In this document: positions 11,651 to 59,584 of the stretch, in pieces
How positions within the stretch are numbered: the stretch's first letter is position 1
Layout: every line of letters starts with the position of its first letter
Assembly: GCF_003790525.1 (NCBI RefSeq)
Contig: NZ_CP033635.1
DNA length: 64,000 nt
Origin: Escherichia coli
Lineage (GTDB): Bacteria; Pseudomonadota; Gammaproteobacteria; Enterobacterales; Enterobacteriaceae
Strand: one strand, 5' to 3'
Program-made: the position numbers and the translations under genes
Notes under the pieces: model-generated
What the model was told of the DNA's origin: nothing
Seen by the model: the letters and a program-made list of their open reading frames with translations, nothing else
The model's database searches: none

Positions 11651-13078
11651 CTAGCGCGACTGCTGATTATATTCATCATCGCGTTGATAAGCTTCATCAT
11701 TCGGCTGCTCCGGAACCGACCGCAGTCGATACTCTTCATCCTGGCTCACCGCTTGTTCAGCCAAATCCGGATTAATCTCGCGTTTAATTTCTACCCCTAA
11801 ACCGCGAAACGCTTCTGCCTGCGCCAGCACATTTCCGCGACCTGAAGAGAGTTTTTTCATTGCCTGGCGGTAGTTATCCTGCGCTTTGTCGAGACTTTGA
11901 CCAATCGCTGACATGTCATCGACGAACAAACGCATCTTGTCGTACAGCTTGCTGGCACGATCGGCGATTTGCTGGGCGTTGCGGCTTTGATGCTCATAAC
12001 GCCACAGGTTGGCGATAGTGCGCAGCGCCACCAGCAGCGTAGTCGGGCTAACCAGCATGATATTGTTTTTCAACGCTTCGGTGATCAGCTCCGGCTGGCG
12101 GTCAAGCGCCAGTAAAAAAGCGGGTTCAACGGGAATAAACATCAGAACGTAATCCAGGGTTCGCAGCCCCGGCAGCTGTTGATAATCTTTGCGTCCCAGC
12201 AAACGGATATGGTTACGCACCGACGCGATATGTTCCTGTAGCGCGCTTTCGCGGGTGTAGTCATCTTCGGCGTTGAAATAGCGTTCATAGGCGACCAGCG
12301 TCATTTTGGCGTCGATCACCACATCTTTTCCCTGCGGCAACCGCACGATGACATCCGGCTGCATCCGCGAGCGGGCGTCATTTTCGATGCTGACCTGGGT
12401 TTCATATTCATACCCTTCACGCAGACCGGAAGCCTCCAGCACCCGCGTCAATACTACCTCGCCCCAGTTGCCCTGGGTTTTATTGTCGCCTTTCAGCGCA
12501 CGCGTCAGGTTGATCGCTTCCTGGGCCATCTGGGCGTTGAGTTGCTGGAGGTTGCGGATTTCGTGAGTCAGGGTATGACGTTCTTGGGCTTCTTTACCAA
12601 AGCTGTCCTGGACCTGACGGCGGAAACCGTCCAGTTGTTCACGTAGCGGCGACAACAGGCTGTTCAGGCTCTGACGGTTTTGCTCATCAACCCGGCGATT
12701 GCTGTGCTCAAAAATACGGTTGGCGAGGTTTTCAAACTGCTCACTGAGGCGCTGCTCGCTGTTAATCATCTGGCGAATTTTATCGTCAGCATGTTGCTGT
12801 GCAGCTTCCATCCGCGTGGTTACTTCACGCAGATCGGCCTCCAGAGAGGTGTTAATACTTTGCAGGCTGCGCACTTCGTTATTGAGTAACTCGCACTCAG
12901 CGCGCCAGTGCTCGCTTTGAGTAATTTGTTGTTTTGCCGCGCTTAACTCCGCGACCATCTCTTCACGTTCAGCTAATTGCTCGGCTTTTTGCTGCGCATG
13001 TTGATAACTGGCAAACAGCCAGCCAATTGCCACACCCACCAATGCAATAACTGCGTAAACCATGATTGAGAAATCCAC
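11651..13078 (-). CDS. rmuC: DNA recombination protein RmuC
   Basis: 475 aa, N-terminal TM segment plus long coiled-coil. Confidence 0.9.
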   Translation of the reverse strand: MDFSIMVYAVIALVGVAIGWLFASYQHAQQKAEQLAEREEMVAELSAAKQQITQSEHWRAECELLNNEVRSLQSINTSLEADLREVTTRMEAAQQHADDKIRQMINSEQRLSEQFENLANRIFEHSNRRVDEQNRQSLNSLLSPLREQLDGFRRQVQDSFGKEAQERHTLTHEIRNLQQLNAQMAQEAINLTRALKGDNKTQGNWGEVVLTRVLEASGLREGYEYETQVSIENDARSRMQPDVIVRLPQGKDVVIDAKMTLVAYERYFNAEDDYTRESALQEHIASVRNHIRLLGRKDYQQLPGLRTLDYVLMFIPVEPAFLLALDRQPELITEALKNNIMLVSPTTLLVALRTIANLWRYEHQSRNAQQIADRASKLYDKMRLFVDDMSAIGQSLDKAQDNYRQAMKKLSSGRGNVLAQAEAFRGLGVEIKREINPDLAEQAVSQDEEYRLRSVPEQPNDEAYQRDDEYNQQSR

Positions 13079-13198
13079 AACGCCTCCTGACGCAACAACT
13101 TACCCGCACAAAATAGAATTGTGCTGTACAAACGTCCAGTTTGAAAGAAGTTTCCTGCGAGGCGCTACGCAAAACGATCGTTAATTTTCATTATTTTA

Positions 13199-13232
13199 TC
13201 CCACAATATGAGATGGAGTTTATATTGTGGGA
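13199..13232. promoter_or_regulatory. Perfect 11-bp inverted repeat TCCCACAATAT-N12-ATATTGTGGGA, candidate operator in the rmuC / IclR-gene divergent region
   Basis: Palindrome read directly in sequence, ~60 bp upstream of the IclR-family start. Confidence 0.5.
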
Positions 13233-13294
13233 TATATCACCTTTTCCCCACGTCATTATGTGGAACACTTCAGCAATATCATCAGGAGAAACGT

Positions 13295-14062
13295 ATGGCA
13301 GAAACCTCTTCAACCACCGCAGGCGCACAAACGTTATTACGTGGACTGGCGGTTCTTAATGCTGTTTATAACGGCTGCCATGACCTAAAAAGTATCGGCG
13401 AGTTCACCGGCACGACCCGGAGCACAACCCATCGTTTAGTCACCGTTCTGGTGGAACAACGCTACCTGCGCCATGTCCCAACGCAGGGCTACCAACTGGG
13501 TGCCAAACTGATCGAATTCGGTGCCAGAGCACTGGAAAGCACCTCGCTGTACGAAATTGCCCAGCCCGTTTTGCAACGCCTTGCCCGTTACACCCTGGAC
13601 ACCGTGCATCTGGGGATCGTTGAAGGCGACGAAGTGCTGTATCTGGAGAAGATCAACAGTCAGCGCGGGCTGGAAATGCGCTCACGCCCAGGCCATCGCA
13701 TGCCACTGGCAATCACCGGCATCGGCAAAGCATTGATACTCAACCGAACAGAAGAAGAGTGGCGCACGCTGTTTAAGACCTGTGGTGATGAAACAAAACT
13801 GGGCGCATTTATTCAGAACATGCGTCGTTATGCCGCCAGTGGTTTTGCTTTTGATCTGGAAGAGAACGAGCCGACTATCCGTTGCGTTGCAGCGCCGGTT
13901 TACAACGCCCGGGATGAAATTGTGGCGGCTATTTCTGTCGCCAGTACCACCACGTATATGTCGCTGGCGCGTCTGGAAGAACTGGCACCTTACGTCAAAT
14001 CCTGTGCAGAAGAGATATCCGCTGAACTGGGCTGGGGTAAGCACGTCCGCAAAGATAAATAA
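13295..14062 (+). CDS. IclR-family transcriptional regulator
   Basis: N-terminal wHTH region (LRGLAVLNAV...) and C-terminal effector domain; start chosen at MAETSST (the six-frame ORF extends from 13208). Confidence 0.75.
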   Translation: MAETSSTTAGAQTLLRGLAVLNAVYNGCHDLKSIGEFTGTTRSTTHRLVTVLVEQRYLRHVPTQGYQLGAKLIEFGARALESTSLYEIAQPVLQRLARYTLDTVHLGIVEGDEVLYLEKINSQRGLEMRSRPGHRMPLAITGIGKALILNRTEEEWRTLFKTCGDETKLGAFIQNMRRYAASGFAFDLEENEPTIRCVAAPVYNARDEIVAAISVASTTTYMSLARLEELAPYVKSCAEEISAELGWGKHVRKDK

Positions 14063-14085: not shown

Positions 14086-15090
14086 ATGCCGGGAGCACCC
14101 TCATTTATTGCCCTGGACTGGGGAACGTCATCGCTTCGGGCATGGCGTTTTGGCGAATCACCAAATCCACAAGAAAAACGTGAATTCCCCTGGGGGATCA
14201 TGAAATTACCCTCCCAGGCAGCAACACGTGAGGACGCTTTCCACGATACGTTTTTACGTGTCTGCGGCGACTGGCTGGCACAAACCCCATGCCCGGTACT
14301 GGCTTGCGGCATGCTCGGCAGTGCGCAAGGGTGGCAACCAGCAGCTTATTTACCTTGCCCGGTCACTCTCGAGGGTCTGGCGAAGCAGTTGACGCCAGTT
14401 ATCCACCAGCAGCAGACAATGCTGCACATCATTCCTGGCGTGATTAAAGAAGGTGAAATGCCCGAAGTGATGCGTGGCGAAGAGACACAAATCTTCGGTG
14501 CTATCTCGATGGAACCGGCCCTGCAAAACGCGATCCATCAGGGTATGCCAGTGCTGATAGGCTTACCCGGCACACATGCGAAATGGGCAGTAGTTGAAAA
14601 CAACACCATTACCGATTTCCGAACCTTTATGACGGGCGAGTTATTTGATGTTTTATCCCGCCATTCGATTCTCGGTGCCACCATGCATCCTGGAGATGAA
14701 CCGCACTGGGATGCCTTCACCCACGGGCTGACAGCAGCACAAGAGCATCATCAGACCGGATTATTATCGACGCTGTTTTCGACCCGTTCGCGCCTGCTGA
14801 CCAGTAATCTTACGTCGTCCTCGCAGGGGGATTACCTTTCCGGATTACTGATAGGCCATGAATTATGCGGTCTGGCATCCAGTTTGCTACGTGATTTACC
14901 CGCCACAACACCGATCGCCTTAATCGGTAGCGCAAATCTGAACAGCCGCTATTCACAAGCATTCAGCCACGTTTTTCCCGACAGACAGATACACGCCATT
15001 CCTAATGCCACTGAACAGGGATTATGGCGAATCGCCCACGCTGCCGGGTTACTGTCCACCAACGCCAGGGAATGTACCCATGCCATTTAA
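14086..15090 (+). CDS. 2-dehydro-3-deoxygalactonokinase-like (DgoK-family) sugar-acid kinase
   Basis: Motifs IALDWGTSSLRAW, VMRGEETQIFGA, PGTHAKW, DFRTFMTGELF, LSGLLIG resemble DgoK; RBS aggaaa upstream. Confidence 0.7.
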   Translation: MPGAPSFIALDWGTSSLRAWRFGESPNPQEKREFPWGIMKLPSQAATREDAFHDTFLRVCGDWLAQTPCPVLACGMLGSAQGWQPAAYLPCPVTLEGLAKQLTPVIHQQQTMLHIIPGVIKEGEMPEVMRGEETQIFGAISMEPALQNAIHQGMPVLIGLPGTHAKWAVVENNTITDFRTFMTGELFDVLSRHSILGATMHPGDEPHWDAFTHGLTAAQEHHQTGLLSTLFSTRSRLLTSNLTSSSQGDYLSGLLIGHELCGLASSLLRDLPATTPIALIGSANLNSRYSQAFSHVFPDRQIHAIPNATEQGLWRIAHAAGLLSTNARECTHAI

Positions 15091-15709
15091 GACGCTTTTG
15101 CAAAAAACCGGGTTAGTCGCCATTTTACGCGGCGTGAAACCGGATGAGATTGTCGCCATCGGTGAAAAACTGTACGCCGCCGGATTCCGCCTGATTGAGA
15201 TTCCTATGAACTCGCCGGAGGCGTTGCAAAGTATCAGTTTACTGCGCGACGCCCTGCCTAAGGATTGCCTGGTCGGAGCCGGAACTGTGCTTTCGGTAGA
15301 GCAGGTGGTTGCGGTTAAAGAGGCTGGGGGCCAGATTATCGTGATGCCGCATTGCGATACTGCGGTGATCCGTCGCGCCCGTGCGCTGGGTATGTATTGT
15401 GCGCCTGGCGTCGCCACGCCCACCGAAGCCTTTGCTGCCATTGAACATGGTGCTAATGCCATCAAGCTGTTCCCGGCTGAACAAATTACGCCAGAAGTTA
15501 CCAAAGCCTGGCGTGCGGTTATTCCACAATCCGTTCCGATGTTACCGGTTGGCGGTATCACACCGGAAACCATGGCGCGTTATCTGAGCCACGGCGCAAA
15601 CGGCTTTGGCCTCGGTTCTGCGCTATATCACCCCGGCATGACGCCAGAGCAAGTCTATGAAAATGCAGTACTGTTTATGAACGCATGGAACAATTTAAAT
15701 AGCAACTAA
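15080..15709 (+). CDS. 2-dehydro-3-deoxy-6-phosphogalactonate (KDPGal/KDPG-type) aldolase, DgoA-like
   Basis: LVAILRGVKPDE...IEIPMNSP...GAGTVL...CAPGVATPTEAF...GANAIKLFPA...PVGGITPE; start at MPFKTLL overlaps the kinase stop by 11 nt. Confidence 0.7.
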   Translation: MPFKTLLQKTGLVAILRGVKPDEIVAIGEKLYAAGFRLIEIPMNSPEALQSISLLRDALPKDCLVGAGTVLSVEQVVAVKEAGGQIIVMPHCDTAVIRRARALGMYCAPGVATPTEAFAAIEHGANAIKLFPAEQITPEVTKAWRAVIPQSVPMLPVGGITPETMARYLSHGANGFGLGSALYHPGMTPEQVYENAVLFMNAWNNLNSN

Positions 15710-15733: not shown

Positions 15734-16708
15734 ATGATAAAACATCTTACCTTACCGAAAAAAATGGCTGCAATGGTACTTCTTGCAGGCGCTGCCCTCA
15801 GCATTGCGCCTGTACAGGCAGCCTCCTACCCAACCAAACAGATCGAGTTAGTCGTTCCCTACGCTGCCGGAGGCGGTACGGATCTGGTTGCCCGTGCCTT
15901 TGCTGATGCCGCCAAAAACCATTTACCCGTCAGCATCGGGGTTATCAATAAACCTGGCGGAGGCGGTGCTATCGGCCTGAGTGAAATCGCCGCTGCCCGC
16001 CCTGGCGGTTACAAAATTGGTTTAGGCACGGTTGAACTGACCACCCTTCCCAGCCTCGGAATGGTGCGTTTTAAAACCAGCGATTTTAAACCCATTGCCC
16101 GTCTAAACGCGGATCCGGCTGCTATCACCGTCCGTTCTGATGCGCCGTGGAATAGCTATGAAGAATTTATGACTTACGCCAAAGCGAATCCCGGAAAAGT
16201 ACGCATTGGTAACTCAGGCACCGGAGCTATCTGGCATCTGGCGGCAGCTGCACTGGAAGACAAAACGGGTGCGAAGTTTTCTCATGTCCCGTATGACGGC
16301 GCAGCCCCTGCCATTACAGGCCTGTTAGGCGGGCATATTGAAGCGGTTTCCGTAAGCCCAGGAGAAGTTATCAACCATGTGAAAGGCGGCAAGCTGAAGA
16401 CACTGGTAGTGATGGCGGATGAGCGAATGAAAACCATGCCTGACGTCCCGACGTTAAAAGAGAAAGGCGTTGATCTCTCCATCGGCACCTGGCGCGGCCT
16501 GATTGTGTCGCAAAAAACGCCGCAGGATGTGGTGGATGTTCTGGCAAAGGCAGCAAAAGAGACGGCTGAAGAGCCTGCATTCCAGGATGCACTGCAAAAG
16601 TTGAATCTCAACTATGCATGGCTTGACGCTGCCAGCTTCCAGACCCAAATCAGCGAACAGGAAAAGTACTTTGACGAGTTGCTGACTCGCCTGGGCCTGA
16701 AAAAATAA
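15734..16708 (+). CDS. Tripartite tricarboxylate transporter (TTT) periplasmic substrate-binding protein, TctC/Bug family
   Basis: 324 aa with signal peptide (MIKHLTLPKKMAAMVLLAGAALSIAPVQA); characteristic YPTKQIELVVPYAAGGGTDL. Confidence 0.75.
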   Translation: MIKHLTLPKKMAAMVLLAGAALSIAPVQAASYPTKQIELVVPYAAGGGTDLVARAFADAAKNHLPVSIGVINKPGGGGAIGLSEIAAARPGGYKIGLGTVELTTLPSLGMVRFKTSDFKPIARLNADPAAITVRSDAPWNSYEEFMTYAKANPGKVRIGNSGTGAIWHLAAAALEDKTGAKFSHVPYDGAAPAITGLLGGHIEAVSVSPGEVINHVKGGKLKTLVVMADERMKTMPDVPTLKEKGVDLSIGTWRGLIVSQKTPQDVVDVLAKAAKETAEEPAFQDALQKLNLNYAWLDAASFQTQISEQEKYFDELLTRLGLKK

Positions 16709-16721
16709 ACCTGAGGTACGG

Positions 16722-17231
16722 TTGATGAACACAAAACAGTCTGTTGCTCAACTCGCCGTACCGCACCGCAAGCGCCTTTCATCAACGATGGTGGTGGCGC
16801 TGTTACTTTGTGTGGTTGCTGGCGCGGTGATGATTAATGCCGCTGATTTTCCAGCAACTGCCATTGAAACGGATCCCGGTGCAAGTGCCTTCCCTACCTT
16901 CTATGCCTGTGCCCTGATTGTGCTCGCTGTCTTGCTGGTGATACGCGATCTTTTGCAGGCAAAACCAGCCTCTTGCGCCAACGCACAGGAAAAACCGGCA
17001 TTCAGGAAAACGGCAACAGGAATTGCGGCAACCGCGTTTTATATTGTGACGATGAGCTACTGCGGTTATCTCATTACTACTCCTGTTTTCCTCATCGTCA
17101 TTATGACGTTGATGGGCTACAGGCGATGGGTACTCACACCGGGTATTGCGCTGCTGTTAACGGCAATCCTCTGGTTGCTGTTTGTCGAAGCGTTACAGGT
17201 GCCATTGCCTGTCGGCACATTTTTCGAATAA
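16722..17231 (+). CDS. TTT small membrane subunit, TctB-like
   Basis: 169 aa, four predicted TM helices, immediately between TctC-like and TctA-like genes. Confidence 0.65.
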   Translation: MMNTKQSVAQLAVPHRKRLSSTMVVALLLCVVAGAVMINAADFPATAIETDPGASAFPTFYACALIVLAVLLVIRDLLQAKPASCANAQEKPAFRKTATGIAATAFYIVTMSYCGYLITTPVFLIVIMTLMGYRRWVLTPGIALLLTAILWLLFVEALQVPLPVGTFFE

Positions 17232-17243
17232 CAGGGGCCAGCA

Positions 17244-18734
17244 ATGTTTGAAAGTGAACTTTTAACTCAGGGTTTTTCGACATTACTCAATAATCCTCAG
17301 GCGCTGCTGTTTGCCACTTTTGGGGTGATGCTGGGTATTGTGATTGGCGCTTTGCCTGGTCTGACAGCGACCATGGGTGTGGCGATTTTGCTGCCTTTCA
17401 CCTACGGCATGGAGCCTGTTTCTGGCTTGTTGATGATTTGCGGCGTCTTTTTTGGTGGCGTCTACGGTGGTTCTATCACCGCAATTTTGCTCAAAATTCC
17501 CGGAACGCCTGCCGCCGCAGCCACCGCTATTGATGGTTATGAGCTGACGAAACAGGGAAAAGCAGGGCTGGCATTGAGTGCCGCCACGTTCTCTTCCTTT
17601 AGTGGCGGAACGCTCAGCATTATCGTGCTGATGTTTCTCTCTCCGGTACTTGCCAGTTGGGCGCTGAAATTTAGTGCCTCGGAGTCCTTCGCCCTGGCAA
17701 CCTTCGGACTGAGCATTATTGCCAGTATTTCCGGTGAGTCACTGATTAAAGGGCTGATTGCCGGGGTTGGCGGATTGCTGATCGCAACGATAGGCCTTGA
17801 TCCAATGGGCGGTTTTCCACGGTTTACAGGTGGATTTGTGGAGCTGATGAATGTGCCATTTATCCCGGTGATGATTGGTTTATTTGCTGCTTCAGAAGCA
17901 TTCCGCTCTATGGAGCAAAACCAGCAAATTCGTCAGGGGGCGAAGGTGGCTATCGGCAGTCTGTTACTGCCCTGGCAAACACTACGCCGCATTGCATTAA
18001 CCATTTTGCGCTCATCAGGATTAGGGGTTTTTATCGGCATGATCCCCGGTGCGGGGGCGGATATTGCAGCTTTTGTTGCCTATAACGAAACTCGTCGTTT
18101 CAGTAAGACACCAGAAAACTTTGGTAAGGGTGAAATTAAAGCTGTGGCCTCCTGTGAGGCAGGCGCGAATGGCTGCACCGGTGGCGCATTGTTACCTATG
18201 CTGACGCTGGGGATCCCTGGCGATGCGGTAACCGCCATCATGCTGGGCGCGTTAACGTTACAGGGAATGCAACCAGGCCCGCTGATGTTTACCGACCACG
18301 GCGATATGGTTTATACACTGTTTGTCGGCATGATCTTCTGTTACTTCATGCTACTAGTTCTTGGACTGCTCTCTTTGAAAGTCATCGGTAATGTGGTGAA
18401 AATTCCCGGCAATATTCTCACACCGATGATCCTCGCACTTTGTGTGGTCGGGACTTATGCGTTGAACAATAGCCTGTTTGATGTTGGCATTATGCTGATT
18501 GCAGGCGTGGTGGGCTATTTCATGCAGAAAGGAGGATATCCGGCATCACCCGTAGTGCTGGCATTGATTATGGGGCCAATGGCGGAAAGTAATTTTCGCC
18601 GTGCGCTGTCGCTTTCTGGTGGGTCACTCGACTTTCTGTATACCCGACCGATAACTCTGGCATTGCTGACTCTGGCAGCCTTTACGCTACTGACGCCAAT
18701 AATCCGCAAAATAATGCGTTTACGGCGTCAATAA
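17244..18734 (+). CDS. TTT large permease subunit, TctA-like
   Basis: 496 aa polytopic membrane protein with duplicated G-rich motifs (LPGLTATMGVAILLP / IPGAGADIAAFVAYNE). Confidence 0.75.
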   Translation: MFESELLTQGFSTLLNNPQALLFATFGVMLGIVIGALPGLTATMGVAILLPFTYGMEPVSGLLMICGVFFGGVYGGSITAILLKIPGTPAAAATAIDGYELTKQGKAGLALSAATFSSFSGGTLSIIVLMFLSPVLASWALKFSASESFALATFGLSIIASISGESLIKGLIAGVGGLLIATIGLDPMGGFPRFTGGFVELMNVPFIPVMIGLFAASEAFRSMEQNQQIRQGAKVAIGSLLLPWQTLRRIALTILRSSGLGVFIGMIPGAGADIAAFVAYNETRRFSKTPENFGKGEIKAVASCEAGANGCTGGALLPMLTLGIPGDAVTAIMLGALTLQGMQPGPLMFTDHGDMVYTLFVGMIFCYFMLLVLGLLSLKVIGNVVKIPGNILTPMILALCVVGTYALNNSLFDVGIMLIAGVVGYFMQKGGYPASPVVLALIMGPMAESNFRRALSLSGGSLDFLYTRPITLALLTLAAFTLLTPIIRKIMRLRRQ

Positions 18735-18741
18735 CTGATAT

Positions 18742-18769
18742 CGCTCCCCGAAGTTGGGGAGCGTTTTTT
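18742..18769 (+). terminator. Rho-independent terminator after the tct-like operon (overlaps the 3' end of udp)
   Basis: CGCTCCCC-GAAGTT-GGGGAGCG hairpin followed by T6. Confidence 0.65.
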
Positions 18770-19532
18770 ATTTCAGCAGACGACGCGCCGCTTCCACCAC
18801 GATTTTCACCGCATGGCTTTCGGTTTGTTTCATCGTCTCAGCATTCGGGATCTCTTGCTGGGTGCGGTTAACGATAACCCCCGCTACCATACCGGCACGC
18901 AGGCCCTGACTTGCACACATGGTCAGCAGGGTTGCAGATTCCATTTCATAGTTCATTACGCCCATCGCCTGCCACTCTTCCATAGAACCTTTAAAGTGAC
19001 GAACTACGCGACCAGAGTAAGTATCGTAACGTTCCTGACCCGGGTAGAAGGTATCAGAAGAAGCCGTCACACCAACGTGAGTGGTGGCACCAATTGACTT
19101 CGCCGCTTCAACCAGCGCAGTCGTACATTCGAAATCAGCGACAGCCGGGAATTCCAGCGGTGCGAAGTGCAGGCTCGCACCATCCAGACGAACAGACGCC
19201 GTGGTAACCAGGACATCGCCAACATTAATATGCGGCTGAATAGCGCCTGTTGTGCCGATACGCAGGAAGGTGCGAATGCCCAGCTGTGCCAGCTCTTCAA
19301 CAGCAATAGAGGTAGACGGGCCGCCGATACCGGTAGAGCAGACGATAACAGGTTTACCATCCAGCTCTGCACGCCAGGTGGTGAATTCGCGATGAGATGC
19401 CAGCTTAACCGGCTTATCCATCAGCGCGGCGATCTTTTCCACACGATCCGGGTCGCCAGGGACGATGGCAAGCGTAGCCCCTTGTAAATCGTTTTTAGTG
19501 AGGCCGAGATGAAAAACATCAGACTTGGACAT
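18768..19532 (-). CDS. udp: Uridine phosphorylase
   Basis: [35 protein letters not shown]..., full-length Udp. Confidence 0.95.
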
Positions 19533-43678: not shown

Positions 43679-44047
43679 GACCGGGACTCCCAATGCTTAA
43701 AATATCGGACAGTTCGGTGGGCACACAGAAACAAATTGGGTTTCAGACCATTAAACAGCCTGACTCAGCGCGACGGGAAAAATTGAGGTCGCTGACAACC
43801 GCTAAGGCTATCAGCAAAAAGGGATAGCCTTAGGAGTTGATCCTGGATGACAGGATAGTGAGCCAGTATCTACTGGGTGTGTCCAAGGCGAATGTCCTCT
43901 TAGAGTGATCGTGCGCGCATGTTACGCCAGCAAAATTTTGCCGTCAACACGCAACAGAACACCACAGAACAATAGTTGAACTTCGCGCTTTTTGGTACTC
44001 GTCAAGGTCGCTAACAGGATAAAAAAATCCCACATCCAGGACCTATA

Positions 44048-51475: not shown

Positions 51476-51944
51476 TATGGATTGCCTGTAAAGTTCATCG
51501 CTTTCTGCTTTCTATCATCGCAGGAGAAGACGTAAAAGCAAGCGTTTAGCGACTCTTTATGAAGTCTGAAAAGTGAGGAAATGCTGCGAGTATAACGCTT
51601 ACACGTGGCGATTTATGTTTTGCTGGCAGTTTCGTGATCGGCACCTCGCGCCAGGATGGCTTTATGCACTATCGCAACGTGGTTTGTTTGTTGTCTTGTT
51701 CGTTGTTCTTATCGTCGGCATGGGGATGTCGGCTTTCCGCGCCTGAACATAATATTTACCAGAAACAGGGAAAAGGCGTGGTGTACCTGCGTCCTTATGA
51801 AAAGACCAATCTTTCGCTATATAGAGATATTATTATTCCGTTGACGGATGAATCATGCCGTAACGCAGCCGCAGACGGGCAAACTTTGAAGCCCTGACCC
51901 CATACCGCTATACTGCCGCCATCACTTAAAAACAGGATACAACA

Positions 51945-59377: not shown

Positions 59378-59584
59378 AAAAAAACGCCTGCTCTTATTAC
59401 GGAGCAGGCGTTAAAACAGGTCTGTATGACAACAAGTGGGTGCTTCACTCAACGTTGTGTCCATGGTGTCTGATGAGGCATAAGCGACATCTGTCAGTGG
59501 ACGATAAGCACCGTAAACGGCTCTGCGTCATTCCGGAGTTTATGAGGCACTAAGGCGAACATAAGAGATGGAATGAGCATCTAC
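59378..59584 (-). ncRNA. glmZ: Small regulatory RNA GlmZ (SraJ/RyiA), regulator of glmS
   Basis: Minus-strand sequence GUAGAUGCUCAUUCCAUCUCUUAUGUUCGCC...CGCCUGCUCCGUAAUAAGAGCAGGCG-U7 matches my memory of GlmZ, including the intrinsic terminator; lies in the expected hemY-aslA intergenic region. Confidence 0.8.

Follow-up and report, generated by a model that had tools for sequence, protein, structure and literature searches.

A tandem-box palindrome as the predicted operator of an IclR-family regulator in a widespread Escherichia coli islet

Within the 64-kb stretch of Escherichia coli DNA analyzed here (the window, which is 100% identical to E. coli SMS-3-5, NC_010498.1), a perfect inverted repeat precedes the gene for an IclR-family regulator in a small genomic islet. 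This palindrome is probably a two-box operator of the islet's own regulator, through which a six-gene operon for sugar-acid uptake and breakdown would be switched on and off. The first-pass annotation had called it a likely autoregulatory or operon operator, a view supported by its position in islet-specific DNA, by the conservation of its half-sites across genera and by the tandem layout of the predicted sites. Linkage of the repeat to the regulator and to the dgoKA genes, conservation of the motif, and absence from islet-less genomes are all read directly from the sequence. As a control element it is of an ordinary and well-understood kind, not previously pointed out for this E. coli islet; it is useful for annotating a widespread, uncharacterized islet and will not surprise a specialist.

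The repeat lies inside the 216-bp spacer between rmuC and the regulator gene, in the divergent region to which it had originally been assigned. On the minus strand, rmuC starts at 13078, placing the repeat 119 bp upstream of that start. On the plus strand, the regulator gene (13295 to 14062; 255 aa, WP_000852398.1) matches the Pfam families PF09339 (HTH_IclR) and PF01614 (IclR_C) and has a ribosome-binding site, AGGAGA, at 13284 to 13289; the RefSeq start agrees, and the ATG at 13295 is 60 bp past the right arm, the distance estimated earlier. It is the first gene of the operon. The same strand then carries a 2-keto-3-deoxygalactonate kinase-like gene (dgoK-like, Pfam DGOK; 14086 to 15090), a 2-dehydro-3-deoxy-6-phosphogalactonate aldolase-like gene (dgoA-like; 15080 to 15709), and tctC (15734 to 16708), tctB (16725 to 17231) and tctA (17244 to 18734), each part of a tripartite tricarboxylate-type (TTT) transporter. 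A strong intrinsic terminator with a 9-bp GC-rich stem and a T-run (18742 to 18773, plus strand) marks the right edge of the islet. Since the six genes of the iclR-dgoK-dgoA-tctC-tctB-tctA array are tightly packed, with gaps of at most 24 bp and one terminator at the end, a single site would control the whole operon, the regulator gene included. No second box was found inside the operon in the dgoA-tctC gaps of the window and of four other loci (L004, L006, L007 and L024).

The islet spans 5.6 kb between rmuC and udp and stands in place of about 47 bp of K-12 spacer: homology to a K-12-type genome (TG1) ends at 13174 on the left and restarts at about 18774 on the right. Neither an integrase nor a transposase gene is among its genes, and there is no dehydratase gene to accompany the kinase and the aldolase. 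It is present in 1456 of 5426 complete E. coli genomes, once in each, or about a quarter of them, with ExPEC lineages and B strains (BL21, for example) among the carriers. The palindrome occurs once per genome in exactly these 1456 genomes, 22 bp inside the left junction (13174/13175), and K-12-type genomes lack it. The first-pass annotation had named conservation of the palindrome in genomes lacking the island as grounds for assigning it to the rmuC promoter, and no such conservation is seen. In APEC O1 the islet has been noted as six ORFs of unknown function (PMC3349570), and a literature search for functional work on it returned mentions of its existence only.

The repeat had been described as 11-bp arms at 13199 to 13232, TCCCACAATAT-N12-ATATTGTGGGA. 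It reads exactly so, with the correction that the arms are 13 bp rather than 11, the repeat finder gaining one bp at each end (TATCCCACAATAT and ATATTGTGGGATA). The left arm, TATCCCACAATAT, occupies 13197 to 13209 and the right arm, ATATTGTGGGATA, 13222 to 13234; they are separated by a 12-bp spacer, GAGATGGAGTTT, at 13210 to 13221. No perfect inverted repeat in the 64-kb window is longer, and no other perfect 13-bp one occurs there at a loop of at most 30 nt. In dinucleotide-preserving shuffles of the window with the same loop limit, 13-bp perfect repeats are expected at 0.045 per 64 kb, at least one appearing in 3% of shuffles, and from the same shuffles the chance of finding one in a 216-bp spacer is about 1.5e-4. 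The 11-bp version alone would be unremarkable, because 0.75 perfect repeats with arms of that length are expected window-wide. A search of the window for further copies of the arms at up to 3 mismatches gave 16 matches against 13 expected, and besides the two arms themselves none was better than 3 mismatches.

Closer inspection resolves the repeat into two predicted binding sites. Box A (13198 to 13214, ATCCCACAATATGAGAT) is a 17-bp quasi-palindrome that agrees at 15 of 16 positions with ATCCCAYA-N-TRTGGGAT, the 17-mer scoring consensus implied by the published sites of an alphaproteobacterial group in Table S2 of PMC8222616, and is the predicted site for one regulator dimer. It can be written ATCCCACA-A-TATGAGAT, that is, two inverted half-sites around an A/T-rich center, as expected of an IclR operator. 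Box B (13217 to 13233, AGTTTATATTGTGGGAT), also 17 bp, agrees at 12 of 16 positions, has a strong outer half and a weak inner one, and is centered 19 bp from box A. The perfect 13-bp arms thus correspond to the strong outer halves of the two boxes, the left arm holding the box A outer half-site ATCCCACA and the right arm the box B outer half-site TGTGGGAT; the inner halves, GAGAT and AGTTT, are degenerate and fall in the spacer between the arms.

Only two 17-mers in the window score at least 12/16, and they are the ones at 13198 (15/16) and 13217 (12/16). Matches of at least 15/16 are expected at 0.003 per 64 kb, and only 0.2% of shuffles contain a tandem pair. Because about 6 sites of box B strength (12/16) are expected per 64 kb, the support for box B is its spacing and conservation, not its score. 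The simpler pattern ATCCC-N7-GGGAT, with at most one mismatch, occurs at one place in the window, 13198. Likewise, under a weight matrix built from non-Escherichia boxes only, 13196 to 13216 is the top-scoring segment of the window; at 13.97 it lies little above the typical shuffle maximum (12.1), and the match is significant only given its location. The 19-nt spacing of the boxes falls within the 18 to 22 nt that characterizes tetramer geometry: tandem IclR palindromes with centers 18 to 22 nt apart were reported in more than half of the orthologous groups and were read as tetramer binding (PMC8222616). The earlier remark that IclR regulators bind palindromes of this size therefore holds for the whole repeat as a tetramer footprint and fails for it as a dimer site, the recognition unit being the 17-bp box. 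In every respect that can be tested computationally, the predicted element is what a tandem-box IclR operator should be.

The motif is found with the regulator well outside Escherichia. By protein search, orthologues of the regulator occur in other Enterobacterales (54 to 73% identity) and in a large betaproteobacterial group (about 55%). A genome scan yielded 80 regulator loci, whose neighbors were checked by tblastn of the islet proteins; a dgoK-like gene adjoins the regulator in all of them except one 4-kb contig, and a dgoA-like gene is present in 76. The full iclR-dgoK-dgoA-tctCBA array occurs in Buttiauxella, Phytobacter, Klebsiella spallanzanii, Lelliottia and Brenneria, and in Buttiauxella and Klebsiella it likewise sits between rmuC and udp. 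In Achromobacter, Bordetella and Collimonas, dgoKA is divergent from the regulator gene. The genes 3' of the Achromobacter regulator (LysR, aldehyde dehydrogenase, epimerase, Bug protein and GST) are unrelated to the dgo pair and so give no clue to the effector.

In six enterobacterial genera, and also in Achromobacter/Bordetella, a 17-bp box resembling ATCCCAyA-N-TrTGGGAT precedes the orthologous regulator gene. Searched as ATCCC-N7-GGGAT with at most one mismatch, it lies 95 to 250 bp upstream of that gene in 4 enterobacterial genera besides Escherichia and in 9 Alcaligenaceae. The box reads ATCCCATATATAGGGAT in Buttiauxella and Klebsiella, TTCCCACATATTGGGAT in Phytobacter, ATCCCTATATGTGGGAC in Brenneria, ATCCCTATATATGAAAC in Lelliottia and ATCCCACATA(T/C)AGGGAA in the nine Alcaligenaceae. 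In most loci a second box follows 19 to 20 bp from the first; it reads TGTTTATATTATGGGAT in Buttiauxella, GGTTTATATTGCGGTAT in Lelliottia and ATCTCAAAATATAGAAT in Achromobacter, at a spacing of 19 to 20 nt in all three. When five enterobacterial spacers are aligned, invariant columns cluster on TCCCA.A, G.GA, TTATA.T, GG.AT and T.TCACC, the remainder having diverged, and a six-sequence alignment gives the same picture. No ATCCC-N7-GGGAT box was found within 400 bp upstream of the Burkholderia, Paraburkholderia and Caballeronia orthologues (about 60 loci), nor directly upstream of the regulator in the Pseudomonas (L086) and Serratia odorifera (L087) loci, where the gene arrangement is different. 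Orthologous proteins of the Burkholderia type have long N-terminal extensions, and their upstream layout is different.

Across 60 bp around the repeat, 845 of the 1456 islet-bearing E. coli genomes share one sequence and about 609 differ at 1 to 3 positions; the palindrome is imperfect in about 40%. The right arm is invariant among the five E. coli lineages aligned. Ecol_AZ159 (AZC159-type), the sampled representative of the variant class, has a C-to-T change in the left arm (ATCCCATAATAT) together with one spacer change; the arm change yields ATCCCAT, the form found in Klebsiella and Buttiauxella. In the divergent lineage L003 the left arm carries an A-to-T change. These arm variants imply that perfect symmetry is not required. 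The most variable positions are 13214 to 13216, in the spacer between the arms, which have changed repeatedly among E. coli lineages. Substitutions across the 38 bp of the repeat as a whole show no clear depletion within E. coli, and the variable columns (5 in these 38 bp against about 16 in the remaining 178 bp) are too sparse to gauge selection.

The regulator is not one of the named members of its family. Its scores against the NCBIfam equivalog models (cut-offs in parentheses) are 142.7 for BhcR (350), 129.7 for KdgR (275), 93.2 for IclR (380) and 74.6 for AllR (406), all far below the cut-offs, which rules out each of these identities. Its closest solved relatives are a TM0065-type IclR protein, KdgR, AllR, YiaJ and TtgV, with E values of 1e-22 or weaker. 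The predicted operator shares some features with those of E. coli IclR, AllR and KdgR: an IclR-family regulator beside its target, palindromic half-sites with an A/T-rich center and, probably, effector-released repression of a catabolic operon. It differs from them in its half-site, ATCCCAYA here as opposed to TGGAAAT (IclR/AllR) or AAATGAAACA (KdgR). The arrangement of two dimer sites about two helical turns apart resembles the TtgV tetramer-operator model.

The closest counterpart, likened by DNA motif alone, is the AZC_2273 group in Table S2 of Suvorova and Gelfand 2021 (PMC8222616), drawn from Azorhizobium, Methylobacterium, Caulobacter and Hirschia. Its sites, which are predictions, include gTCCCAcAaTATGGGAT and a pair, ATCCCATATatTGGGAT and gTttCtTtaTgTGGGAT, 20 nt apart. 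The 17-bp motif is nearly the same (gTCCCAcAaTATGGGAT and ATCCCATATatTGGGAT compared with ATCCCACAATATGAGAT in E. coli), and the second box of M446_4911, gTttCtTtaTgTGGGAT, has the weak inner and strong outer halves of E. coli AGTTTATATTGTGGGAT. The predicted regulon (enolase-superfamily dehydratases, short-chain dehydrogenases and an MFS permease) is also of a sugar-acid type. Unlike the E. coli islet, however, this group is alphaproteobacterial, lists no dgoK, dgoA or TTT genes and has a spacing of 20 nt rather than 19. Locus tags of the islet (EcSMS35, UTI89, APECO1 and ECP_) do not occur in the searched part of the supplement to PMC8222616. For regulation biology the result is confirmatory: the tandem-palindrome rule for IclR tetramers gains an enterobacterial case, and a motif predicted earlier only in Alphaproteobacteria gains a wider range.

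Two further systems are comparable in gene content or logic. The E. coli dgo operon is described as under a specific repressor acting on inverted repeats at a dgoK/dgoA-type promoter, combined with catabolite control and a sugar-acid inducer (PMC7674646). The control predicted for the islet resembles it in joining a repressor at inverted repeats, dgoK/dgoA-type genes and cAMP-CRP. The differences are that DgoR is a GntR/FadR protein and the islet regulator an IclR one, that the operator sequence is another, that transport is by the MFS protein DgoT as opposed to TctCBA, and that the islet has no dehydratase gene. In Salinivirga fredricksonii, an IclR-family 'GalR' is found with dgoK and a TTT-family transporter, with a predicted role in galactonate-type uptake and catabolism (Leyn et al. 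2017, PMC5507952); here the likeness is one of gene content (IclR regulator, dgoK and TTT-family transporter), in a distant alphaproteobacterium.

A CRP-like site, TGTGGGATATATCACC, lies against the predicted operator at 13226 to 13241, with 2 mismatches to TGTGA-N6-TCACA and its center 61.5 bp from the ATG; in E. coli, 8 to 9 bp of box B and of the right arm fall within it. Sites with at most 2 core mismatches occur in all seven enterobacterial regions (chance about 0.09 to 0.15 per region), centered 60.5 to 62.5 bp from the ATG in Escherichia, Buttiauxella, Phytobacter and Klebsiella and 70.5 to 72.5 bp from it in Lelliottia and Brenneria. The invariant T.TCACC block 3' of box B is the right half of this site. 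Compared with Buttiauxella, Phytobacter and Klebsiella, E. coli is missing 9 bp between box B and TCACC, and the TGTG of the box B outer half therefore doubles as the left half of the CRP-like site.

A scan of the E. coli spacer for the sigma-70 consensus gave nothing on the plus strand, and in Klebsiella, too, the plus strand showed no consensus promoter; the minus strand of the E. coli spacer has one weak 9/12 sigma-70 match (13282 to 13255, reading leftward), which is at chance level. Because the plus strand offers no such promoter, the position of the operator relative to the promoter rests on the geometry of the CRP-like site. From that geometry and the six-sequence alignment, a weak -10 element, AACACT (13264 to 13269, plus strand), is proposed with low confidence. 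If CRP acts from -41.5, transcription would start near 13275 and the leader would be roughly 20 nt. The CRP-like site would then be placed as in a class II CRP-dependent promoter, with no recognizable -35. Elsewhere the boxes lie at better core elements. In Achromobacter/Bordetella the upstream box contains the -35 of a 10/12 promoter that points toward dgoK (TTGAGA-17-TAGAAT), and in Buttiauxella TCAACA and GATAAT flank box A; as predicted from these elements, both arrangements are of repressor-type geometry.

The overlap of the CRP-like site with the right arm suggests that the regulator keeps CRP from activating transcription as long as no sugar-acid effector has released it. We infer the binding itself, the tetramer stoichiometry, the sign of regulation, the effector, the transcription start and the CRP dependence, and the scheme that they compose would run as follows. 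One regulator dimer would occupy each box, a tetramer spanning boxes A and B. When no inducer is present, this tetramer would shut out CRP and RNA polymerase. The operator would be freed by a metabolite of the pathway, probably 2-keto-3-deoxy-galactonate or a sugar acid close to it; the former is the likely effector because the islet has the kinase and the aldolase and no dehydratase. Upon release, cAMP-CRP would activate the genes for the TTT transporter and the kinase and aldolase, together with the regulator gene itself, which would make the system autoregulatory. The predicted operator, the probable CRP dependence and the operon structure give a handle for learning the sugar acid of the TTT transporter and of this second dgoK/dgoA pair. 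Sugar-acid use, the dgo system included, is described as a recurrent target of selection in gut colonization (PMC9509342 and PMC12288454).

A more specific joint reading, which we offer tentatively as a possibility, would tie these features together. The 9-bp deletion in E. coli may have fused the box B outer half-site with the CRP left half, such that the arm ATATTGTGGGATA would be read by two regulators and the IclR protein would compete directly with CRP (anti-activation). Decay of the inner half-sites might have left a 'split' operator with its strong half-sites three helical turns apart. Under the control of such an element would be a tripartite-tricarboxylate-type transporter, perhaps the only one in E. 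coli, and this transporter could feed a dehydratase-independent salvage of 2-keto-3-deoxy-galactonate, mainly in extraintestinal pathogenic lineages.

The regulator could instead bind the same boxes and activate, alone or with CRP, which we regard as improbable. Some IclR-family members, such as PobR, PcaU and MhpR, are activators. The proposed promoter has no -35, and the boxes would lie upstream of its core, at about -50 and -69 if transcription starts near 13275, which would fit activation, as does the failure to find a consensus promoter on the plus strand in E. coli or Klebsiella. However, box B and the CRP core share 8 bp in E. coli, which makes joint binding hardly possible, and the boxes of Alcaligenaceae and Buttiauxella overlap near-consensus core promoter elements. 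Moreover, the nearest named relatives by profile (KdgR, IclR, AllR and YiaJ) are repressors.

That the repeat acts as an RNA hairpin rather than a protein site, whether in the 5' untranslated region of the operon's own mRNA or in a transcript running toward rmuC (antisense or read-through), is very unlikely. A 52-nt segment does fold into a 16-bp stem at -20.3 kcal/mol on the plus strand (z = -5.3) and at -16.1 kcal/mol on the minus strand; the orthologous segments of Buttiauxella and Klebsiella fold well too, and the common C-to-T variant of E. coli would retain a G-U pair. In contrast, the orthologous Phytobacter segment folds no better than its shuffles (z = +0.24) and still keeps the box motif. 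Across genera, conservation holds for the bases of ATCCCA/TGGGAT and not for the pairing partners: the arms move outward in Buttiauxella and break in Klebsiella without compensation, and the arm change of L003 is likewise uncompensated. Neither strand has a T-run after the stem, no terminator was called at the repeat, and an Rfam scan of 12900 to 13500 at E of at most 1 returned two meaningless sub-threshold matches (best E = 0.5). With a start near 13275, the repeat would in any case lie outside the operon transcript.

We give still less credence to a relic of the islet's arrival devoid of any regulatory role, be it a recombination site, a mobile-element terminal repeat or a quasi-palindrome that template switching made perfect. 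The repeat is just 22 bp from the left junction, and its perfect 13-bp symmetry is more than the cross-genus consensus needs, as such an origin might leave it. Yet neither the right junction nor the rest of the window has a related sequence at up to 3 mismatches, the islet has no integrase or transposase, and the motif travels with the regulator among other neighbors and gene orders in Phytobacter, Lelliottia, Brenneria and Alcaligenaceae. The repeat is present at one place per genome, unlike REP-like repeated palindromes, which have many copies. Finally, an operator belonging to the rmuC promoter, which the location in the divergent spacer 119 bp upstream of the rmuC start might suggest, has next to no probability: homology with islet-less E. 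coli stops at 13174, so the palindrome is not part of a shared rmuC promoter, and 3969 complete E. coli genomes keep rmuC and the 96-bp segment upstream of it (13079 to 13174) without the palindrome.

Relative to K-12, the islet (the iclR-dgoK-dgoA-tctCBA operon between rmuC and udp) has its junctions at window positions 13174/13175 and 18773/18774, and it stands in place of about 47 bp of udp-rmuC spacer that in K-12 contain the udp terminator hairpin (AAAAGGCCGAACGCGTCGGCCTT). The left junction exactly adjoins the stem of a terminator-like hairpin on the minus strand just upstream of rmuC (TTTTGCGTAGCGCCTCGCAGGA + AACTTCTTTC; 13153-13174), which is kept in K-12, Klebsiella spallanzanii and Buttiauxella. 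The right junction lies in the last codons of udp (18768-19532, minus strand), so that the gene ends in ...LLK* here rather than in ...LL*, and its product carries one additional C-terminal Lys. What udp now meets is the tctA terminator of the islet, in the wrong orientation.

The rmuC-udp position is not peculiar to E. coli. The islet occupies it in other genera as well, at the Buttiauxella and Klebsiella spallanzanii loci (L004 and L006, respectively), where its proteins share just 49-91% identity with their E. coli counterparts. This combination of a common site with diverged proteins argues for an old insertion site or an old islet. The islet-less state of K-12-type genomes may be a deletion and not the ancestral state. 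Within E. coli, the islet is also present in the B/BL21 strain BL21-RIPL, where the operator region is identical (NZ_CP083273.1:1924445-1924504), so a common laboratory strain is available for work on the system. The annotation of one of the 1456 islet copies places it on a plasmid record.

Directly downstream of tctA, Lelliottia (L007, 6001-6741) and Serratia odorifera (L087, 3001-3756) encode a second IclR paralogue that shares 61-62% identity with the E. coli regulator. The Lelliottia dgoKA-tctCBA cluster is thus flanked by two related regulators; no ATCCCA-type box was found immediately upstream of the second paralogue in either locus. The orthologues from Burkholderia, Paraburkholderia and Caballeronia (L008-L082) have N-terminal extensions of 40-100 residues, and no ATCCC-N7-GGGAT box lies in the 400 bp upstream of them. 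Common to 29 of these loci is the k-mer CTACAATC(C), located roughly 150-300 bp upstream from the tblastn match. It looks like the -10 element of a promoter (TTGGAG-17-TACAAT) that has ATTCAAATATTGGAG in front of it, and may represent a diverged operator.

Several other repeats and matches were noted. The window-wide scan also returned perfect 11-bp inverted repeats at 43802-43833 (10-nt loop) and 59383-59412 (8-nt loop). The second-best window match to the cross-genus box matrix, built from non-Escherichia boxes, is far from the islet (51754-51774, ATTTACCAGAAACAGGGAAAA, 13.6 bits); its score falls inside the range of the shuffle maxima, so it is probably due to chance. A weak promoter-like match on the minus strand (13282->13255; ATGATA-16-CATAAT, 9/12), directed from the iclR leader back across the operator toward rmuC, is no better than expected by chance in this region. 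Finally, a repeat starting CTATACCCTAAATAATTCGAGTTGCA..., which we take to resemble an ERIC-type enterobacterial intergenic repeat, is common to the Klebsiella dgoA-tctC gap (L006, 8425-8530) and the region upstream of the Serratia regulator (L087, 2850-2935).
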